The position numbers and the translations under genes are program-made. The notes under the pieces are model-generated. The model did no database searches. It saw nothing but the letters and a program-made list of their open reading frames with translations, and was not told the origin of the DNA. From assembly GCF_055900595.2 (NCBI RefSeq), contig NZ_CM148325.1: DNA of 64,000 nucleotides; one strand, written 5' to 3'. Each line of letters begins with the position of its first letter. Position 1 is the stretch's first letter. Of this stretch, positions 5,098 through 14,181 are shown in pieces.

Positions 5098-6094
5098 GCC
5101 CATCGTTTTTAGTGGCGCACAGCCCTCAGGTGAATTGACCATTGGTAACTACATGGGTGCGCTGCGTCAGTGGGTAAACATGCAGGATGACTACCATTGC
5201 ATTTACTGTATCGTTGACCAACATGCGATCACCGTGCGCCAGGATGCACAGAAGCTGCGTAAAGCAACACTGGATACGCTGGCGTTGTATCTGGCTTGTG
5301 GTATCGATCCTGAGAAAAGCACCATTTTTGTTCAGTCCCACGTGCCGGAACATGCGCAGTTAGGCTGGGCACTGAACTGCTATACCTACTTCGGCGAACT
5401 GAGCCGTATGACCCAGTTTAAAGACAAATCTGCGCGTTATGCCGAGAATATCAATGCTGGTCTGTTTGATTATCCGGTGCTGATGGCGGCGGATATTCTA
5501 CTGTATCAAACCAACCTGGTGCCGGTGGGTGAAGACCAGAAACAGCACCTGGAACTGAGCCGCGATATCGCCCAGCGTTTCAACGCGCTGTATGGCGATA
5601 TTTTTAAAGTGCCGGAACCGTTTATTCCGAAATCCGGCGCGCGCGTAATGTCGCTGCTGGAGCCGACCAAGAAGATGTCCAAGTCTGACGATAATCGCAA
5701 TAACGTTATCGGCCTGCTGGAAGATCCGAAATCGGTCGTGAAGAAAATCAAACGCGCGGTCACTGACTCCGACGAGCCGCCGGTAGTTCGCTATGATGTG
5801 CAGAATAAAGCGGGCGTTTCCAACCTGCTGGATATCCTTTCTGCGGTAACTGGCCAGAGTATCCCGGAACTGGAAAAACAGTTCGAAGGCAAGATGTATG
5901 GTCATCTGAAAGGCGAAGTGGCTGATGCCGTTTCTGGTATGCTGACTGAATTGCAGGAACGTTATCACCGTTTCCGCAACGACGAAGCCTTCCTGCAACA
6001 GGTCATGAAAGACGGCGCAGAAAAAGCCAGTGCACACGCTTCCCGGACGCTGAAAGCGGTTTACGAAGCGATTGGTTTTGTGGCGAAGCCGTAA
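5090..6094 (+). CDS. trpS: tryptophanyl-tRNA synthetase
   Basis: 334-aa ORF with class I KMSKS motif (KKMSKSDDN) and HIGH-region equivalent TIGNYMG. Confidence 0.95.
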
Positions 6095-6109
6095 TTTAAC
6101 ATTAATGCC

Positions 6110-6135
6110 AAAAACCGGGGAAACCCGGTTTTTTT
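6110..6135 (+). terminator. rho-independent terminator after trpS
   Basis: AAAAACCGGG-GAAA-CCCGGTTTTTTT stem-loop with T-run immediately after trpS stop. Confidence 0.8.
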
Positions 6136-6203
6136 ATCCTCATTTGCAATAATCCGAAAAAATGTGAAGCGCCTCGCCGTTTCCACATCTCACAGTTGCC
6201 ACT

Positions 6204-6225
6204 TATCTTCATTTTAATGAAGATA
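6204..6225. promoter_or_regulatory. perfect 10-bp inverted repeat (TATCTTCATT-tt-AATGAAGATA), candidate operator about 30 bp upstream of yhfZ
   Basis: Palindrome read directly from sequence in the AT-rich trpS-yhfZ intergenic region. Confidence 0.4.
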
Positions 6226-6253
6226 TAAACATTCATTTTATTGAAAATATATT

Positions 6254-7159
6254 ATGCGTCGAACGTTTATCAAAAAAGAAGGCGTCGTCATCACGACACT
6301 GGCCCGTTATTTGTTGGGTGAAAAATGCGGTAATCGACTGAAAACCATAGATGAACTGGCAACTGAATGCCATTCATCCGTTGGCCTGACGCAGGCCGCG
6401 TTGAAAACGCTGGAATCAAGCGGTGCGATACGAATTGAACGCCGCGGGCGCAATGGCAGTTATCTGGTGGAAATGGATAACAAAGCACTGCTGAGTCATG
6501 TGGATATCAACAACGTTGTGTGTGCCATGCCCTTGCCCTATACCCGCTTGTACGAAGGTTTAGCGAGTGGACTGAAAGCTCAGTTTGATGGCATTCCTTT
6601 TTATTATGCGCACATGCGCGGTGCGGATATTCGCGTGGAGTGTTTGCTTAACGGTGTCTATGACATGGCGGTGGTTTCCCGACTGGCGGCAGAAAGTTAT
6701 CTCACGCAAAAAGGCTTATGCCTCGCGCTGGAGTTGGGGCCGCATACCTACGTTGGCGAGCACCAGTTGATTTGCCGTAAAGGCGAGTCCGCAAACGTGA
6801 AACGCGTGGGGCTGGATAACCGTTCGGCGGATCAGAAAATCATGACCGATGTCTTTTTTGGCAGTAGCGATGTAGAACGTGTCGATCTCTCTTATCACGA
6901 GAGTTTACAACGCATTGTTAAAGGCGATGTCGATGCGGTGATCTGGAACGTGGTAGCGGAGAGCGAACTGGCCATGCTGGGATTAGAAGCGATGCCACTG
7001 ACGAACGATCTGCGATTTTTACAGGCTACTGAAGCCGTGATACTAACGCGTGCCGATGATTACCCAATGCAACAACTGCTGCGTGCAGTGGTTGATAAAC
7101 AGGCCCTGCTTGCCCATCAACAACGAGTGGTGAGTGGGGAACAGGAACCCAGTTATTAA
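6254..7159 (+). CDS. yhfZ: putative transcriptional regulator of the yhf cluster (N-terminal HTH-like region plus ligand-binding-like domain)
   Basis: 301-aa ORF, first gene of eight co-directional ORFs; recognised as YhfZ by length and position. Confidence 0.75.
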   Translation: MRRTFIKKEGVVITTLARYLLGEKCGNRLKTIDELATECHSSVGLTQAALKTLESSGAIRIERRGRNGSYLVEMDNKALLSHVDINNVVCAMPLPYTRLYEGLASGLKAQFDGIPFYYAHMRGADIRVECLLNGVYDMAVVSRLAAESYLTQKGLCLALELGPHTYVGEHQLICRKGESANVKRVGLDNRSADQKIMTDVFFGSSDVERVDLSYHESLQRIVKGDVDAVIWNVVAESELAMLGLEAMPLTNDLRFLQATEAVILTRADDYPMQQLLRAVVDKQALLAHQQRVVSGEQEPSY

Positions 7160-7175
7160 ATGAAAGGCATCTGAA

Positions 7176-7538
7176 ATGGAAACCAGACTCAACCTGCTTT
7201 GCGAGGCAGGCGTTATTGATAAGGACATCTGCAAAGGCATGATGCAGGTCGTCAAGGTACTGGAAACCGAATGCCATTTGCCAGTGCGCAGCGAGCAAGG
7301 AATGATGGCGATGACACATATGGCGAGCGCACTGATGCGCAGTCGCCGTGGTGAAGAAATAGAGCCGCTGGATAACGAATTGCTGGCAGAGCTGGCGCAA
7401 TCCAGCCACTGGTCAGCCATTTTACAATTGCATCAGGTGTTGTTGAAGGAATTCGCACTGGAAGTTAACCCGTGTGAAGAAGGCTATTTGCTGGCCAACC
7501 TTTATGGATTATGGATGGCTGCTAACGAAGAGGTTTGA
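7176..7538 (+). CDS. yhfY: small cytoplasmic protein of unknown function (YhfY family)
   Basis: 120-aa ORF 17 nt after yhfZ. Confidence 0.65.
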   Translation: METRLNLLCEAGVIDKDICKGMMQVVKVLETECHLPVRSEQGMMAMTHMASALMRSRRGEEIEPLDNELLAELAQSSHWSAILQLHQVLLKEFALEVNPCEEGYLLANLYGLWMAANEEV

Positions 7539-7621
7539 GGCTCCCGACAAATCCACGTCGCACAACCTAAATATTCAAAAAAATGAATATTTAATTCAAG
7601 GAACAGAAACGAGGCAACAAG

Positions 7622-8785
7622 ATGTTTGTAGAAGCATTGAAACGCCAGAACCCGGCACTGATTTCCGCCGCACTAAGATTGTGGCAACAGGGCAAGATCG
7701 CCCCGGACAGTTGGGTAATCGACGTGGATCAGATACTGGAAAACGGTAAGCGGCTGATTGAGACGGCGCGGCTTTACGGCATTGAACTGTATCTGATGAC
7801 CAAGCAGTTTGGTCGTAATCCGTGGCTGGCGGAAAAACTACTGGCATTGGGCTACAGCGGCATTGTGGCGGTGGATTACAAAGAGGCGCGAGTCATGCGC
7901 CGCGCCGGTTTGCCGGTGGCGCATCAGGGGCATCTGGTACAAATCCCTTGTCATCAGGTTTCTGACGCCGTTGAACAGGGCACCGACGTCATCACCGTGT
8001 TTACACTCGACAAAGCGCGGGAAGTTTCTGCCGCAGCGGTGACGGCCGGGCGGGTCCAGCCTGTGCTGCTCAAAGTTTATAGCGACGATGATTTTCTTTA
8101 TCCGGGGCAGGAGAGCGGTTTTGCACAGCATTCGCTGCATGAGGTGGTTGCTGAAATCCAGAAACTACCGGGGTTACATTTAGCCGGATTAACCCATTTC
8201 CCTTGCCTGCTATGGGATGAGGCTGCCGGGAAAGTTTTGCCAACACCGAACCTCCAGACGCTGGTCAATGCTCGTAACCAACTTCTGAAGTCTGGAGTTG
8301 TACTTGAGCAATTAAACGCGCCTTCAGCGACCAGCTGCACTTCGCTGCCATTACTGGCGGAATACGGTGTGACTCATGCCGAACCCGGCCATGCACTGAC
8401 GGGGACGATTCCGGCAAACCAGCAGGGCGACCAACCCGAACGTATCGCCATGCTTTGGCTGAGCGAAATTTCCCATCACTTCCGTGGCGACAGCTACTGC
8501 TACGGCGGCGGTTATTACCGTCGTGGTCACGCGCAACATGCGCTGGTGTTTACGCCAGAAAATCAAAAGATTACTGAAACCAATATCAAAACTGTGGATG
8601 ACAGCAGTATCGACTACACCCTGCCGCTGGCAGGCGAGTATCCGGTGAGCAGTGCAGTGGTGCTCTGTTTTCGCACGCAGATTTTTGTCACCCGTAGCGA
8701 TGTGGTGCTGGTGTCCGGTATTCACCGTGGCGAACCGGAAATCGTTGGTCGTTATGACAGTCTTGGAAGCTCTCTGGAGGCGTAA
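7622..8785 (+). CDS. yhfX: putative PLP-dependent enzyme (alanine-racemase-like fold), function unknown
   Basis: 387-aa ORF; stop overlaps yhfW start by 1 nt. Confidence 0.75.
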
Positions 8786-10011
8786 TGGCGCGATTTGTGG
8801 TGTTAGTGATTGATAGCTTTGGCGTAGGCGCAATGAAAGATGTCACGTTGGTGCGCCCACAGGATGCCGGGGCGAATACCTGTGGTCACATCCTGAGCCA
8901 ACTGCCGCATTTGCAGCTACCAACGCTGGAGAAGCTGGGGCTAATCAACGCATTAGGTTATGCGCCAGGCGATATGCAGCCGTCAGACTCCGCAACCTGG
9001 GGTGTGGCAGAGCTGCAACATGAAGGTGGCGATACCTTTATGGGGCATCAGGAAATTTTAGGCACGCGCCCGTTACCGCCGCTGCGGATGCCCTTTCGCG
9101 ATGTGATTGACCGTGTTGAACAGGCATTAGTCACCGCTGGCTGGCGGGTTGAGCGCCGTGGCGAAGAGTTGCAATTTCTGTGGGTTAATCAGTCGGTTGC
9201 CATTGGCGATAACCTCGAGGCGGATTTAGGCCAGGTCTATAACATCACCGCCAATCTCTCTGCGATCTCTTTTGACGACGCAATCAAAATTGGTCGTATC
9301 GTGCGTGAGCAGGTACAGGCCGGTCGGGTCATTACATTTGGCGGCCTGTTAACTGACAGTCAGCGCATTCTCGATGCCGCAGAAAGCAAAGAAGGGCGCT
9401 TTATTGGCATCAATGCGCCGCGTTCTGGCGCTTATGACAATGGCTTCCAGGTCGTACATATGGGCTACGGCGTCGATGAAAAAGTGCAGGTGCCGCACCA
9501 ACTGCATCAAGTGGGCGTGCCCACGGTGCTGGTGGGTAAGGTGGCAGATATTGTCAGCAATCCTTATGGCGTGAGCTGGCAAAACCTGGTGGATAGCCAG
9601 CGGATTATGGATGTCACCCTCGACGAATTTAACACGCATCCGACGGCGTTTATTTGCACCAATATCCAGGAAACCGACCTCGCTGGTCACGCAGAAGACG
9701 TCGCACGTTATGCTGAACGTTTGCAGGTCGTTGACCGTAACCTTGTCCGGCTTGTTGAGGCGATGCAGCCAGATGATTGCCTGGTCGTGATGGCGGATCA
9801 CGGTAACGATCCGACCATTGGTCACAGCCACCATACCCGTGAAGTAGTGCCAGTGCTGGTTTATCAGCAAGGGCTGGTCCACACGCAACTCGGTGTGCGC
9901 ACCACGCTTTCTGATGTGGGGGCTACCGTGTGTGAATTTTTCCGTGCGCCACCGCCACAAAATGGTCGCTCTTTTCTTTCCTCCCTCCGGTTTGCAGGAG
10001 ACACCCTATGA
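8785..10011 (+). CDS. yhfW: phosphopentomutase-like metalloenzyme, function unknown
   Basis: 408-aa ORF; N-terminus [11 protein letters not shown] resembles the DeoB metal-binding DSxGxG motif; overlaps php by 4 nt. Confidence 0.75.
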
Positions 10012-10886
10012 GTTTTGATCCGACGGGCTTCACCCTCGCCCATGAGCATCTGCATATTGATCTCTCCGGCTTTAAAAACAACGTGGACTGCCGCCTTGAT
10101 CAGTATGCGTTCATTTGCCAGGAGATGAACGACCTGATGGCACAGGGTGTGCGTAATGTGATTGAGATGACCAACCGTTACATGGGGCGCAATGCACAAT
10201 TTATGCTCGATGTAATGCACGAGACGGGGATCAACGTGGTGGCCTGCACCGGTTATTACCAGGACGCGTTTTTCCCGCAACATGTGGCGACCCGCAGCGT
10301 GCAGGAACTGGCGCAGGAGATGGTCGATGAAATTGAACAGGGTATCGATGGCACGGAGCTGAAAGCCGGGATCATCGCGGAGATTGGCTCCAGCGAAGGA
10401 AAGATTACGCCGCTGGAAGAGAAAGTTTTTATTGCCGCCGCGCTGGCACATAACCAGACCGGACGCTCGATCTCCACGCATACGTCGTTCAGCACGATGG
10501 GGCTGGAGCAATTGGCTCTGTTGCAAGCCCACGGAGTTGATCTTTCGCGCGTCACCGTTGGTCACTGCGATCTGAAAGACAACCTCGACAACATTTTGAA
10601 GATGATCGATCTCGGCGCGTATGTGCAGTTCGACACCATCGGCAAGAACAGTTACTACCCGGACGAAAAGCGCATTGCGATGCTCCACGCGCTACGTGAC
10701 CGTGGGTTGCTGAACCGCGTCATGCTGTCGATGGATATTACGCGCCGCTCTCATTTAAAAGCCAACGGTGGTTATGGCTATGACTATTTATTAACCACCT
10801 TTATTCCGCAATTGCGCCAGTCAGGATTCAGTCAGGCCGATGTGGATGTGATGTTACGTGAAACTCCCTCTCAATTTTTCCAATAA
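10008..10886 (+). CDS. php: phosphotriesterase-homology protein (amidohydrolase superfamily, binuclear metal hydrolase)
   Basis: 292-aa ORF with N-terminal HxH metal motif ([12 protein letters not shown]). Confidence 0.85.
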
Positions 10887-10896
10887 GGACAGACTC

Positions 10897-11250
10897 ATGA
10901 AAAAGATTGGTGTTGCAGGCTTACAGCGTGAGCAGATTAAAAAAACCATTGAAGCGACGGCTCCTGGCTGTTTTGAAGTTTTCATTCATAACGACATGGA
11001 AGCGGCGATGAAGGTGAAATCCGGGCAACTGGATTACTACATCGGCGCGTGTAATACCGGGGCGGGCGCGGCATTGTCGATTGCCATCGCGGTGATTGGC
11101 TATAACAAAAGTTGCACTATTGCCAAGCCGGGCATTAAAGCGAAAGACGAGCATATCGCCAAAATGATCGCCGAAGGGAAAGTGGCGTTTGGGCTTTCCG
11201 TTGAGCATGTCGAACACGCGATTCCGATGCTGATTAACCATCTGAAATAA
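10897..11250 (+). CDS. yhfU: small protein of unknown function (YhfU family)
   Basis: 117-aa reading from ATG preceded by AAGGA; track ORF begins 39 nt further upstream inside php. Confidence 0.65.
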   Translation: MKKIGVAGLQREQIKKTIEATAPGCFEVFIHNDMEAAMKVKSGQLDYYIGACNTGAGAALSIAIAVIGYNKSCTIAKPGIKAKDEHIAKMIAEGKVAFGLSVEHVEHAIPMLINHLK

Positions 11251-11261
11251 AAGGCACGACT

Positions 11262-12566
11262 ATGGATCTGTATATTCAGATTATCGTGGTGGCGTGCCTG
11301 ACGGGTATGACATCGCTTCTGGCGCATCGCTCGGCAGCCGTTTTTCATGACGGTATCCGCCCGATCCTGCCGCAACTGATTGAAGGCTATATGAACCGTC
11401 GTGAGGCGGGGAGTATCGCTTTTGGTCTGAGCATTGGTTTTGTGGCCTCGGTGGGGATCTCTTTTACCCTGAAAACCGGGTTGCTCAACGCATGGTTACT
11501 CTTTCTTCCTACCGATATCCTCGGTGTCCTGGCGATAAACAGCCTGATGGCGTTTGGCCTTGGTGCACTCTGGGGCGTACTGATCCTCACCTGCCTGCTG
11601 CCGGTAAACCAGCTGCTGACCGCGCTACCGGTGGATGTATTAGGTAGTCTGGGGGAATTAAGCTCGCCAGTGGTTTCAGCTTTTGCACTGTTCCCGTTGG
11701 TGGCGATTTTCTACCAGTTTGGCTGGAAGCAAAGTCTGATCGCCGCCGTGGTAGTGTTGATGACCCGTGTGGTGGTAGTGCGCTATTTCCCGCATCTCAA
11801 TCCGGAATCCATCGAAATCTTTATTGGCATGGTGATGCTGCTGGGGATCGCGATAACTCACGACCTGCGTCATCGTGATGAAAATGACATCGATGCCAGC
11901 GGTATGTCGGTGTTTGAAGAACGTACGTCGAGGATTATCAAAAATTTACCCTATATCGCCATCGTAGGGGCGCTGATTGCCGCCGTTGCCAGCATGAAGA
12001 TTTTTGCTGGTAGTGAAGTGTCGATCTTCACCCTGGAGAAAGCATATTCCGCAGGTGTAACGCCGGAACAATCACAAACGCTGATCAACCAGGCGGCGCT
12101 GGCGGAATTTATGCGCGGGCTGGGTTTTGTGCCGTTGATTGCCACCACCGCGTTAGCAACAGGTGTGTATGCAGTTGCGGGCTTTACCTTTGTTTATGCG
12201 GTGGGCTATCTCTCGCCGAATCCGATGATTGCAGCGGTATTAGGCGCAGTGGTTATTTCGGCGGAAGTCCTGTTACTTCGTTCGATCGGCAAATGGCTGG
12301 GACGCTATCCATCGGTACGTAACGCGTCGGATAACATCCGTAACGCCATGAATATGCTGATGGAAGTGGCGTTGCTGGTCGGTTCGATTTTCGCAGCAAT
12401 TAAAATGGCGGGCTATACCGGATTCTCCATCGCGGTTGCCATTTACTTCCTCAACGAATCCCTGGGCCGTCCGGTACAGAAAATGGCGGCACCGGTCGTA
12501 GCAGTAATGATCACTGGCATCCTGCTGAATGTTCTTTACTGGCTTGGTCTGTTCGTTCCGGCTTAA
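11262..12566 (+). CDS. yhfT: polytopic inner-membrane protein, putative transporter (YhfT family)
   Basis: 434-aa ORF, multiple hydrophobic segments. Confidence 0.75.
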   Translation: MDLYIQIIVVACLTGMTSLLAHRSAAVFHDGIRPILPQLIEGYMNRREAGSIAFGLSIGFVASVGISFTLKTGLLNAWLLFLPTDILGVLAINSLMAFGLGALWGVLILTCLLPVNQLLTALPVDVLGSLGELSSPVVSAFALFPLVAIFYQFGWKQSLIAAVVVLMTRVVVVRYFPHLNPESIEIFIGMVMLLGIAITHDLRHRDENDIDASGMSVFEERTSRIIKNLPYIAIVGALIAAVASMKIFAGSEVSIFTLEKAYSAGVTPEQSQTLINQAALAEFMRGLGFVPLIATTALATGVYAVAGFTFVYAVGYLSPNPMIAAVLGAVVISAEVLLLRSIGKWLGRYPSVRNASDNIRNAMNMLMEVALLVGSIFAAIKMAGYTGFSIAVAIYFLNESLGRPVQKMAAPVVAVMITGILLNVLYWLGLFVPA

Positions 12567-12577
12567 AGAAGGCACCT

Positions 12578-13663
12578 ATGAAGACGTTTCCTTTGCAAAG
12601 CCTGACGCTTATTGAAGCGCAGCAAAAGCAGTTTGCGTTGGTGGATACGATTTGCCGCCATTTTCCCGGCGCGGAGTTTCTTACCCGCGGGGATTCAGGC
12701 TTAACGCCGGGCCTGAATCAACCGCGCATTACTCAGCGTGTGGAGCAGGTGCTGGCTGATGCGTTTCATGCGCCAGCGGCGGCGCTGGTGCAGGGCGCGG
12801 GTACTGGAGCAATTCGCGTCGGGCTGGCAGCTTTGCTCAAATCGGGGCAGCGTCTTCTGGTGCATGACGCGCCTGTTTACCCGACGACTCAGGTCATTAT
12901 TGAACAGATGGGGCTGACGCTTATTACTGCTGATTTTAATGACCTGTCGGCACTGAAGCAGGTCGTCGACGAGCAACAACCAGATGCCGCGCTGGTGCAG
13001 CATACGCGCCAGCAGCCGCAGGACAGCTATGTACTGGCAGATGTGCTGGCAACGCTGCGCGCAGCAGGTGTTCCAGCCTTAACCGATGACAACTATGCGG
13101 TGATGAAGGTGGCGCGCATTGGCTGTGAATGCGGGGCGAATGTCTCGACATTTTCCTGCTTCAAGCTGTTTGGGCCAGAGGGTGTTGGCGCGGTGGTAGG
13201 CGATGCTGATGTTATTAACCGGATCCGCGCCACGCTCTATTCCGGAGGCAGTCAGATCCAGGGCGCACAGGCGCTGGAAGTATTGCGTGGTCTGGTGTTT
13301 GCGCCAGTGATGCACGCGGTGCAGGCGGGGGTATCTGAACGGTTGCTGGCCTTGCTCAACGGTGGCGCGGTGGCGGAAGTTAAAAGCGCCGTTATTGCTA
13401 ATGCGCAGTCGAAGGTGTTGATTGTCGAGTTTCATCAGCCGATTGCCGCCAGAGTGCTGGAAGAGGCGCAAAAGCGCGGTGCCTTGCCTTACCCGGTGGG
13501 TGCAGAGTCGAAATATGAAATCCCGCCGCTCTTTTATCGACTTTCCGGAACGTTTCGTCAGGCGAATCCGCAATTAGAACATTGTGCAATTCGCATTAAC
13601 CCGAATCGCAGCGGTGATGAGACGGTATTGCGGATTTTGCGCGAGAGTATTGCCAGCGTTTAA
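12578..13663 (+). CDS. yhfS: putative PLP-dependent enzyme (fold type I-like), function unknown
   Basis: 361-aa ORF; candidate PLP lysine in SCFKLFG; last gene of cluster. Confidence 0.75.
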   Translation: MKTFPLQSLTLIEAQQKQFALVDTICRHFPGAEFLTRGDSGLTPGLNQPRITQRVEQVLADAFHAPAAALVQGAGTGAIRVGLAALLKSGQRLLVHDAPVYPTTQVIIEQMGLTLITADFNDLSALKQVVDEQQPDAALVQHTRQQPQDSYVLADVLATLRAAGVPALTDDNYAVMKVARIGCECGANVSTFSCFKLFGPEGVGAVVGDADVINRIRATLYSGGSQIQGAQALEVLRGLVFAPVMHAVQAGVSERLLALLNGGAVAEVKSAVIANAQSKVLIVEFHQPIAARVLEEAQKRGALPYPVGAESKYEIPPLFYRLSGTFRQANPQLEHCAIRINPNRSGDETVLRILRESIASV

Positions 13664-13767
13664 TTCTGGGAACGATGTTTTCGCAGAGTATGGAGAAAAA
13701 TACGCCCTCGGAAAATTCAGAGGGCGTTAGCTCATTAAACCGGCGTTAGCCGATTTCTGTCAGAGAC

Positions 13768-13935
13768 TTACTGTGCAGTAGGACCGCAACCGCCAATGAT
13801 TTTAGAAATAGAAATTGCCGGGTGCAGCAGGTAGTCGTAAGAGCAGTTCTTATCACGGTTTTCAATATGACCAGTACATGCAGTTAACGTAGCCAGTACT
13901 GCACCTACCAGTGCAACTTTAATAAATTTGTTCAT
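13768..13935 (-). CDS. yhfL: small lipoprotein (55 aa; signal peptide plus lipobox LTAC)
   Basis: Hand-translated minus-strand ORF MNKFIKVALVGAVLATLTACTGHIENRDKNCSYDYLLHPAISISKIIGGCGPTAQ; absent from ORF track because under 60 aa. Confidence 0.7.
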   Translation of the reverse strand: MNKFIKVALVGAVLATLTACTGHIENRDKNCSYDYLLHPAISISKIIGGCGPTAQ

Positions 13936-14129
13936 TTACATTCCCTATGTATTATATATTGATTAATATTCATTGATTATATGAATATAAGCGGACTGCT
14001 CATAAAGAACGATACAGGAATATTTAATTGGCGTCAGTGAGTGAATGACTTAATTTTGTAAGTCGCTGTAACGGTGAATATAATCCATTAGCAAATGATA
14101 TTTATTAAGAGGGTATGCTTTATTTGCTG

Positions 14130-14173
14130 AATATATAAAAAGAGTGATAAAGAGGGCCAGAATTATCTGGCCC
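14130..14173 (-). terminator. stem-loop downstream of cysG (possible terminator of nirBDC-cysG)
   Basis: GGGCCAG-ataatt-CTGGCCC hairpin 9 nt past the cysG stop, followed by a T-rich stretch on the minus strand. Confidence 0.45.
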
Positions 14174-14181
14174 GGGTAAAA

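Follow-up and report, generated by a model that had tools for sequence, protein, structure and literature searches.

The dgaABCDEF genes of Salmonella specify the D-glucosaminate pathway, which combines uptake through the phosphotransferase system (PTS) with a pyridoxal phosphate (PLP)-dependent ammonia-lyase, DgaE, and an aldolase, DgaF. A second cluster, EF_0829-EF_0839 (AHA_3910-3917; families TIGR03576-TIGR03582 and Gly_rich_SFCGS), is described in TIGRFAMs as combining a protein made up only of a PTS regulation domain (PRD) with a PLP enzyme, membrane proteins of novel type, and a small protein containing cysteine. Here we analyze a stretch of Escherichia DNA of 64,000 nucleotides (contig NZ_CM148325.1; hereafter the 64-kb window) whose list of open reading frames (ORFs) contains, on the plus strand between positions 6254 and 13663, the eight genes yhfZ-yhfY-yhfX-yhfW-php-yhfU-yhfT-yhfS (Table 1). 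We favor, at about even odds (probability roughly 0.5), the view that this cluster works as an operon, complete in itself and induced by its substrate, for the catabolism of a small carbohydrate-like nutrient bearing an amino (or N-acyl) group and a phosphate, the likeliest candidates being an amino-pentose or amino-hexose in phosphorylated form, or the corresponding aldonic acid or lactone.

If this view is right, the likeness to dga would be that of an amino-sugar-acid catabolic operon with PTS-tied uptake, in which a fold-type I PLP enzyme deaminates a phosphorylated intermediate and the products enter central metabolism. Whereas dga has a canonical mannose-family EIIABCD, a sigma-54 activator, and an aldolase, the yhf cluster has no recognizable EII and no aldolase; beyond what dga has, it possesses a phosphomutase, a hydrolase of the lactonase type, and a PLP enzyme of fold-type III. 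In architecture, the closest parallel appears, from profile matches, to be the EF_0829/SFCGS cluster, which is itself uncharacterized. There are matches, each below the cut-off, between YhfY and the PRD protein of EF_0829/SFCGS (TIGR03582, E = 4.6e-6), between YhfS and the PLP enzyme (a weak one; TIGR03576, E = 0.003), and between one YhfU homologue and the small Cys-Gly-rich protein (Pfam Gly_rich_SFCGS, PF14272, E = 8e-4).

From yhfZ to yhfS, the genes are separated by 16, 83, -1, -4, 10, 11, and 11 nt, with yhfX and yhfW overlapping by 1 nt at 8785 and yhfW and php by 4 nt at 10008-10011. The original prediction, which was made from the letters of the window, had described eight co-directional ORFs with these two overlaps, and the coordinates bear it out; the DSFGVGA and HEHLH motifs that it had picked out are present in the translations, at residues 10-16 of YhfW and 12-16 of Php. 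Its identification of YhfZ as a regulator, of YhfX and YhfS as PLP enzymes (their lysines are conserved), of YhfW as phosphopentomutase-like, of Php as a binuclear-metal amidohydrolase, and of YhfT as a polytopic membrane protein likewise stands. What has to be revised is its description of the other two proteins as small unknowns, since both can be assigned, YhfY to the PRD domain and YhfU to a predicted RpiB-like fold. The same eight genes are found in the same order in the RefSeq annotation of the closest genome (NZ_CP098223).

Relatives of the cluster were found by a scan of one genome per species that relied on one peptide pattern, and 80 loci were fetched. (Note that a 41-sequence alignment of YhfT was too diverse for the genome scan, and an 11-sequence alignment was therefore used.) Within the reach of that pattern, at least 289 species have a YhfT relative, and the habitats of species with the module include those of gut, marine, and insect-associated bacteria. 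When shared families were defined in the 80 loci by tblastn and ORF clustering, the only broadly shared ones were those of the eight cluster genes: YhfT (79 loci), Php (77), YhfU (77), YhfX (75), YhfZ (72), YhfW (71), YhfY (67), and YhfS (38), the last being an optional member. The loci span Enterobacterales, Vibrionaceae, Fusobacteria, Clostridia, and Bacilli, and across these groups the same seven or eight genes recur together. Their order is Z-Y-X-W-php-U-T-S in Enterobacteriaceae, Z-Y-php-U-T-X-W in Vibrionaceae, and Z-Y-U-T-php-(S)-X-W in Firmicutes; despite this shuffling, yhfU and yhfT (with yhfU immediately upstream) and yhfX and yhfW are always adjacent. YhfS is not present in Yersinia, Vibrionaceae, and some Clostridia, and YhfW is not present in several Yersinia species. 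Moreover, the same partner genes recur where the identity of YhfT falls to 27-33%, and also on two megaplasmids, one from Cetobacterium and one from B. thuringiensis. Across at least four phyla, a module of seven or eight genes with fixed U-T and X-W pairs moves as a block, a definition that is new. Among the 80 loci, no kinase, aldolase, dehydrogenase, or canonical transporter was consistently linked to it. We entertained the idea that the module is spread by mobile plasmids and rejected it, as only three true plasmid records carry a YhfT homologue and all three are non-mobilizable megaplasmids (244-705 kb).

That the cluster is not a chance set of ORFs follows from three observations: every one of the eight genes matches a protein family in profile searches, dN/dS measured against other Escherichia alleles is 0.00-0.11 for each of them, and at least 80% of the region is present in one piece in 5058 of 5426 complete E. 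coli genomes (~93%), the other ~7% having no intact copy. All eight genes are under purifying selection; in the same comparison, the neighbors trpS, cysG, and nirC gave values of 0.00-0.01. The dN/dS values and the integrity of all the ORFs also led us to reject a decaying pseudogene cluster. In addition, the catalytic residues predicted for the enzymes are present on alignment and are conserved in at least 97% of the 39-80 homologues compared.

The window itself comes from a divergent Escherichia lineage in which the yhf cluster is evolving faster than its flanks. Identity to the common E. coli allele is ~94% even in the trpS, cysG, and nirC flanks and 90.6% inside the cluster, and positions 1400-22530 are matched at 99% or better by only 8 of the 5426 complete E. 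coli genomes. In NZ_CP098223, the closest complete genome, the annotation lists yhfW (5786-7012 of the fetched locus, L001) among the pseudogenes because of an internal stop; in the window the gene is intact.

Two of the enzymes point to phosphate and sugar chemistry. YhfW scores 728.9 bits against its own model, NF009049 (cut-off 254); we know of no assay behind the name of that model. It stays below the cut-offs of the DeoB equivalogs (TIGR01696, 142.6 versus 341.2 bits; NF003766, 179.4 versus 256 bits), matches phosphopentomutases of the PDB at 6e-31, and also weakly resembles a proposed homoserine kinase family. Residues D10, T84, D298, H302, D338, H339, and H350 are at least 97% conserved, and we take them to be equivalent to the metal ligands and the Thr nucleophile of the B. 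cereus phosphopentomutase. YhfW is thus classed, by sequence comparison, as a phosphopentomutase-like Mn/phosphoryl-transfer enzyme of the alkaline phosphatase superfamily and a paralogue of DeoB. Php belongs to the PTE/PLL/PTER family of binuclear-metal amidohydrolases, and its metal center is bridged by a Glu. Its metal ligands (H12, H14, E125, H158, H186, and D243) are at least 97% conserved, and E125 aligns where the Geobacillus enzyme has Lys, so that there is no carboxylated-Lys bridge. Beside the metal center lies a strongly conserved basic patch made up of K213, R246, R/K247, H/Y249, and K/R190. Php shares its TIM-barrel binuclear hydrolase family with the phospho-sugar lactonases Lmo2620, Bh0225, and MS53_0025 (NF045706), and its similarity to the phospho-furanose lactonase model NF045706 is weak (94.4 bits, cut-off 630). 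K213, R246, R/K247, and H/Y249 could hold a distal phosphate in the way seen in the structure of Lmo2620; to our knowledge, activity of Php on Lmo2620-type phospho-sugar lactones has not been reported. Characterized bacterial relatives of Php reportedly hydrolyze pentono-1,4-lactone 5-phosphates (Xiang et al., Biochemistry 2012), and the nearest solved relatives by sequence include lactonase-type "aryldialkylphosphatases" (~1e-37).

The other two enzymes, YhfX and YhfS, argue for amino-group chemistry. In Pfam, YhfX has an Ala_racemase_N domain (7e-22) and a family-specific C-terminal domain, YhfX-like_C (PF21279); Ala_racemase_C, with its second catalytic residue, was not found by Pfam, and the best racemase model, Orr, gave 27.6 bits against a cut-off of 480. 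YhfX is thus classed as a fold-type III PLP enzyme in which K61, conserved in at least 97% of 76 homologues, is probably the PLP lysine. YhfS is classed as a fold-type I PLP enzyme; its K196 and D170 are at least 97% conserved, and it is most similar to gamma-lyases and synthases of Cys/Met metabolism.

YhfU and YhfT form the presumed uptake pair. YhfU (DUF2620) has an invariant Cys52 in the motif G-x-C-(N/E)-(T/S)-G-x-G. Prediction of its structure from a 30-sequence alignment gave a pLDDT of 95.3 (a single-sequence AF2 prediction with a pLDDT of 43 was set aside), and in this model YhfU is a truncated RpiB-like fold of 117 aa, a new assignment. C52 and T54 align to the catalytic C66 and T68 of E. 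coli RpiB, Thr54 being replaced by Ser in Firmicutes. (The offset of this alignment is consistent with a separate sequence search of the PDB.) Compared with the RpiB/LacAB proteins, YhfU is short (117 versus ~149 aa): Asp9 and His10 of RpiB were not found in YhfU, whose N-terminal motif is IGVAGLQ, and neither were the phosphate-binding residues Arg133, His134, and Arg137, which lie beyond its end. YhfU also lies under the thresholds of the RpiB family (Pfam LacAB_rpiB, E = 0.16; hhalign probability 1.4%), and when relatives were sought in the PDB by sequence alone, matches to RpiB and fumarase were obtained, all of them non-significant. The cysteine of YhfU comes after strand 3, whereas that of PTS EIIB proteins comes after strand 1.

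YhfT is a polytopic protein with ~12 hydrophobic segments by hydropathy and is presumed to be a permease. The family that it founded, PF10797, is a rare one: in a set of 1.84 billion representative proteins, only 306 clusters at the 50% identity level match it. For YhfT and 40 homologues, PF10797 was the sole Pfam match and no NCBIfam model matched. A disguised PTS EIIC was considered and rejected (hhalign against the Lac/Cel EIIC family gave a probability of 0.2%, and the other EIIC families were covered by the Pfam scan only). Moreover, no EIIA-like family shared among the 80 loci was found. Because YhfT is not detectably related to EIIC and no EIIA is linked, the cluster falls outside the canonical PTS; it may nevertheless work in a PTS-linked manner. 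As a tentative and, in our judgment, rather doubtful extension of this idea, YhfT and YhfU could constitute an unrecognized sugar-type uptake system in which an RpiB-fold cysteine protein replaces EIIB, as phosphocarrier or as transport-coupled isomerase, while YhfY reads its state and controls YhfZ; this would be a split, non-canonical PTS-linked module common to the yhf and SFCGS/EF_0829 clusters.

YhfZ has an N-terminal winged helix-turn-helix (HTH_41) and a sensor-like C-terminal YhfZ_C domain in Pfam, and it scores 372.8 bits against the NCBIfam model YhfZ_full, "GntR family transcriptional regulator YhfZ" (cut-off 260). Its family profile matches the winged helix-turn-helix domains of CodY and the FadR family (E ~3e-5), which identifies YhfZ as a probable regulator related to CodY and FadR-type proteins in its DNA-binding part. 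The C-terminal effector domain of a known GntR subfamily (FadR, HutC/UTRA, MocR, or YtrA) was not found, the domain being specific to the family, nor was there a remote PDB relative that would hint at a ligand for it, the only PDB sequence match being 2OZZ, the solved structure of this domain. YhfY is, by profile comparison, a stand-alone single PRD domain of 120 aa that keeps the first phosphorylatable histidine, an assignment that is also new. The profile of its family (24 homologues) matches the PRD of LicT (E = 1.1e-8) and of the BglG family (E = 2.2e-7), and YhfY itself matches the Pfam PRD model with E = 0.005. Invariant residues are H48, A52, R55, and E101, and in the alignment H48 takes the place of the first His that can be phosphorylated in the LicT PRDs. 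At the position of the second PRD histidine, Proteobacteria have Asn and Clostridia have His. One Lentibacillus entry of AFDB, a "transcriptional antiterminator" of 245 aa, can be aligned with YhfU along roughly half of the entry and, judged from this alignment, resembles a fusion of a PRD with DUF2620.

With the regulators BglG/LicT, MtlR, and LevR, YhfY thus has in common the PRD fold, the His aligned to LicT, and the tie to a sugar-type catabolic operon. BglG and LicT have two PRDs behind an N-terminal CAT RNA-binding domain; YhfY has just one PRD, and family and profile searches of the 120-aa protein found no RNA-binding and no DNA-binding domain. In the 83-nt yhfY-yhfX gap, no terminator-like site or RAT element was found, and as RNA the gap has no significant structure (z = -1.19). 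For these reasons, YhfY is not a BglG-type antiterminator, and binding to DNA presumably falls to YhfZ, a protein of its own. An Rfam search by E-value likewise gave no relevant match to a known riboswitch or small RNA in the cluster.

A candidate operator for YhfZ is suggested by the non-coding DNA of the cluster. The 64-kb window contains four copies of the palindrome TTCA-N6-TGAA, three of which have a spacer of A and T only (TTCA-W6-TGAA), and all three of the latter (O1, O2, and O3 in Table 1) fall in the two non-coding gaps of the cluster. A copy of O3 with one mismatch is present at 7595-7608. Across loci, the density of TTCA-W6-TGAA is 5.1/kb in the 150 nt upstream of yhfZ, 0.17/kb in other non-coding DNA, and 0.004/kb in coding DNA, an enrichment upstream of yhfZ of ~30-fold. 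In Enterobacteriaceae, there are two palindromes 24 bp apart before yhfZ and one before yhfX; O1 holds the same relative position in these loci, and O3 is kept as TTCAAAAAAATGA(A/T) in nearly all of them. Vibrionaceae and Yersinia have one palindrome upstream of yhfZ at the position equivalent to O2, and Sebaldella has two in the yhfZ-yhfY gap. In nine of ten Firmicute loci, TACA-W6-TGTA or a near-match, with one base changed per half-site, occupies the equivalent position, so that the site changes together with the lineage of the regulator. As YhfZ is the only DNA-binding protein that travels with the cluster, the palindromes are probably YhfZ operators, which would make this a conserved candidate operator, not described before, that co-varies with its regulator.

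There are probably two transcription units, yhfZY and yhfXW-php-yhfUTS, with one shared type of operator, and this division agrees with the operon listing quoted in PMC4448311. No recognizable Shine-Dalgarno sequence precedes yhfZ (6226-6256), and the hexamer most like a -10 promoter element runs right up to the ATG. The transcript of yhfZ would have almost no leader, unless its true promoter is located farther upstream, beneath O1. The position of O2, 9 nt before the ATG, and the missing Shine-Dalgarno sequence fit autoregulation of yhfZ.

Genes found beside the module in other taxa give further, and new, clues to the class of substrate. NagB, above its cut-off, is encoded directly after the cluster in two Bacilli (Thalassobacillus and Melghirimyces), an amidase gene lies between yhfT and php in two Fusobacteria (Sebaldella and Cetobacterium), and PtsI is encoded directly after yhfW in one Clostridiales genome. 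In one lineage, the gene after the cluster specifies a Cof-type HAD phosphatase (TIGR00099, 175.7 bits, cut-off 137), and a distantly related YhfT homologue has an RbsC-like ribose-type ABC permease as its neighbor. The YhfT homologue farthest removed in sequence (27% identity) is accompanied by no other cluster gene and lies 13 nt upstream of the gene for an MTA/SAH nucleosidase (L087 8001-9978, and L088), a pairing that hints that some members of the YhfT family may carry ribosyl compounds. In L. rhamnosus, the RefSeq accession numbers of the cluster proteins are consecutive with those of a sigma-54 factor and a LevR-type PRD regulator (PMC7513527).

Two further neighborhoods were seen in passing. 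In eight Vibrionaceae loci, a Lac/Cel-family PTS EIIC gene is found near the yhf-like cluster (L047 4258-7153; L049, L051, L055, L057, L059, L067, and L068), and in most of the eight the EIIC gene is accompanied by EIIA and EIIB genes and by a gene for a 296-aa protein without a family match; the EIIC gene may be tied to the cluster or may reflect mere local synteny. On a metagenomic contig, a gene for a 341-aa shikimate-dehydrogenase-like protein (L092 1559-2584) lies between the gene for a YhfT homologue and genes for PRD and YhfW-like proteins, and this variant of the module would, from its predicted product, include an oxidoreductase.

Phosphate and sugar chemistry is thus suggested by the phosphopentomutase-like YhfW, the predicted RpiB fold of YhfU, the basic patch of Php, and the phosphatase, permease, and nucleosidase neighbors; amino-group chemistry is suggested by the two PLP enzymes and by the NagB and amidase neighbors; and a link to the PTS is suggested by the PRD histidine of YhfY, the PtsI neighbor, the Lentibacillus PRD-DUF2620-like entry, and the LevR-type regulator with consecutive accession numbers in L. 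rhamnosus. Together, the enzyme families and neighbors favor a phosphorylated amino-sugar, a sugar-acid (aldonate), or a lactone-type substrate under PTS supervision. The proposal that the cluster serves the uptake and breakdown of a phosphorylated or amino-modified small molecule, which had been made from the window alone, is strengthened by the co-occurrence across phyla and by the NagB, Cof-type phosphatase, amidase, and PtsI neighbors; the substrate itself we infer.

We propose the following scheme, in which the order of the reactions and the direction of regulation are those we infer. YhfT, with the cysteine protein YhfU, would import the compound, and YhfU would then isomerize it or give it a phosphoryl group. 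Php would open a lactone, ester, or amide bond adjoining an anionic group, and YhfW would shift the phosphate between hydroxyls by means of Thr84 and its Mn site. YhfX, together with YhfS where present, would use PLP to remove or rearrange the amino group, with the products passing to central metabolism. YhfZ would bind the TTCA-W6-TGAA palindromes, which overlap the yhfZ and yhfX promoter regions, and YhfY may couple YhfZ to the phosphorylation state of the PTS through His48.

Several observations weigh against this scheme. No kinase and no EIIA is encoded in the cluster, which leaves the source of the phosphate unexplained, and YhfT shows no detectable similarity to any PTS EIIC family. YhfU is without the phosphate-binding C-terminal helix and the Asp-His motif of RpiB and falls below the thresholds of that family. 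Several Yersinia species have no YhfW, and roughly half of the loci have no YhfS, so that neither is essential to the core chemistry. NagB, the phosphatase, PtsI, and the amidase each occur in only one to three lineages, and the candidate operators are assigned to YhfZ by their co-occurrence with it. In the literature that we searched, no substrate, inducer, or phenotype is known. Finally, the Php homologue PTER deacetylates non-sugar compounds (PMC11374699), and by analogy Php need not act on a sugar.

This last point bears on a different reading of the enzymes, one that we consider unlikely, in which the cluster breaks down or detoxifies a non-sugar amino compound, either an amino-acid lactone or thiolactone (for example homoserine lactone) or the N-acyl form of an amine or amino acid. 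In that case, Php would be a lactonase or deacylase, YhfX would racemize or deaminate the freed amino acid, YhfS would perform gamma- or beta-elimination, and YhfW would act on an O-phospho-amino acid. Such roles would suit the lactonase-type relatives of Php, the likeness of YhfS to the Cys/Met-metabolism enzymes, the weak resemblance of YhfW to the homoserine kinase family, and the amidase inserted in the Fusobacteria clusters. They would also suit PTER, the eukaryotic (animal) homologue of Php, which hydrolyzes N-acetyltaurine and N-acetyl-beta-alanine (PMC11374699, PMC13311154; further source, PMC12873775). Php is 31% identical to PTER over 269 residues, and E125 of Php corresponds to E169 of PTER, the bridging Glu found where PTE and the lactonases have a carboxylated Lys. 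(The PTER sequence used here agrees with the nine residue numbers given in the paper.) Php may act as a deacylase. However, R204, R233, H300, and T258 of PTER, named as residues that interact with the substrate or lie beside it (PMC11374699), are F161, L189, T245, and K213 in Php, which argues that the specificity of the two differs, and PTER has a helical insertion commonly missing from bacterial PTEs. We thus rejected N-acetyltaurine hydrolysis as the activity of Php, since the metal center is common to both proteins and the PTER substrate residues are not. Moreover, a non-sugar amino compound leaves the RpiB-fold YhfU, the PRD protein, and the NagB, Cof-type phosphatase, and PtsI neighbors unexplained, and the gamma-lyase-like YhfS on which it draws is the most dispensable member of the module.

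The other alternatives seem to us less probable still. Salvage of a ribosyl or nucleoside-derived compound with an amino-acid moiety (a 5-substituted ribose, or an S-ribosyl or aminoacyl-ribose), proceeding as in deo from a pentose-1-phosphate/5-phosphate mutase to an RpiB-like isomerase, would make use of the DeoB paralogy of YhfW, the predicted fold of YhfU, the reported activity of Php relatives on pentono-lactone phosphates, and the nucleosidase and ribose-type permease found beside distant YhfT homologues. Yet no nucleosidase or phosphorylase is encoded inside any of the 80 core loci, YhfW is missing from several Yersinia clusters, and YhfT is paired with the nucleosidase only at loci that have no other gene of the cluster; we think salvage of this kind quite improbable, and it is a narrower version of the amino-sugar phosphate proposal rather than a true alternative to it. 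To the idea that the cluster is a cryptic, silent remnant in E. coli with no present function we attach very little weight. The lack of a reported phenotype or inducer, the internal stop in yhfW of the closest complete genome, the lower identity of the cluster than of its flanks to the common allele, and the ~7% of genomes without an intact copy would accord with it, but the dN/dS values, the intact catalytic residues, the integrity of all eight ORFs in the window, the retention of the cluster by 93% of complete E. coli genomes, and the conserved operators do not. Equally far-fetched, in our estimation, is the biosynthesis and export of a modified amino sugar or signaling compound: PLP enzymes, mutases, and isomerases are reversible and YhfT could transport in either direction, but no activating enzymes (nucleotidyltransferases, ligases, or glycosyltransferases) are encoded, and the ligand-sensing regulator, the PRD link to carbon-source status, the patchy horizontal distribution, and the catabolic neighbors (NagB and the phosphatase) all point the other way. 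We thus retain the inducible catabolic operon for a phosphorylated, amino-bearing, sugar-like nutrient as our preferred explanation.

The cluster has well-defined boundaries. Upstream lie rpe-gph-trpS, ending in the trpS terminator, and downstream, on the opposite strand, lie yhfL (13768-13935), cysG, and nirC. At 55 aa, yhfL is below the 60-aa threshold of the ORF list; it converges on yhfS, and the inverted repeat between the two (Table 1) is common to both gene ends and serves as the yhfL terminator. A stretch between yhfL and cysG (13940-14180) is AT-rich (GC 0.43-0.45) and contains several short palindromes, for example ATATTCAT-7-ATGAATAT at 13966-13988, as well as a strong promoter-like site on the plus strand at 14056-14084.

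Table 1 Coordinates of the yhf genes, candidate operators, and boundary elements in the window (position 1 is the first nucleotide of the window).
Feature	Position	Strand	Remarks
trpS intrinsic terminator hairpin	6110..6133	+	AAAAACCGGG-4-CCCGGTTTTT then T run; upstream cluster boundary
Candidate operator O1	6208..6221		TTCATTTTAATGAA; extended palindrome 6204-6225; 33-46 nt upstream of yhfZ ATG
Candidate operator O2	6232..6245		TTCATTTTATTGAA; 24 bp from O1; ends 9 nt before yhfZ ATG
yhfZ	6254-7159	+	301 aa
yhfY	7176-7538	+	120 aa
Candidate operator O3	7574..7587		TTCAAAAAAATGAA; extended palindrome 7568-7593; in 83-nt yhfY-yhfX gap
yhfX	7622-8785	+	387 aa
yhfW	8785-10011	+	408 aa
php	10008-10886	+	292 aa
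yhfU	10897-11250	+	117 aa from ATG; mechanical ORF begins at GTG 10858
yhfT	11262-12566	+	434 aa
yhfS	12578-13663	+	361 aa
Inverted repeat	13702..13727		ACGCCCTCGGAA-2-TTCAGAGGGCGT; between convergent yhfS and yhfL; T run toward yhfL; downstream boundary

The original prediction had held that these genes are known and that no substrate has been assigned to them, and both statements agree with what we found. Family models and four solved structures exist, and the PDB entries still carry the labels "hypothetical protein yhfZ" (2OZZ), "uncharacterized protein YhfX" (4KBX), "phosphotriesterase homology protein" (1BF6 and 4LEF, for Php), and "uncharacterized protein YhfS" (4J8L). A search of the full-text literature, whose coverage leaves out many subscription journals, returned no pathway, inducer, or phenotype for the cluster; the papers that mention yhf genes only list them, among the results of an iron-evolution study, of transcriptomes under butanol and stress, and of a screen for resistance to a lacritin peptide.

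In the most thoroughly studied of all bacteria, eight neighboring genes are thus without a known role despite four solved structures. The candidate operator, the His48 and Cys52 sites, and the accessory genes make both the control and the chemistry of the cluster experimentally testable. Finding the nutrient would fill a gap in the metabolism of E. coli and could reveal a new compound for which bacteria compete, and the transporter pair together with the free-standing PRD protein may represent an undescribed mode of PTS-linked uptake and control.

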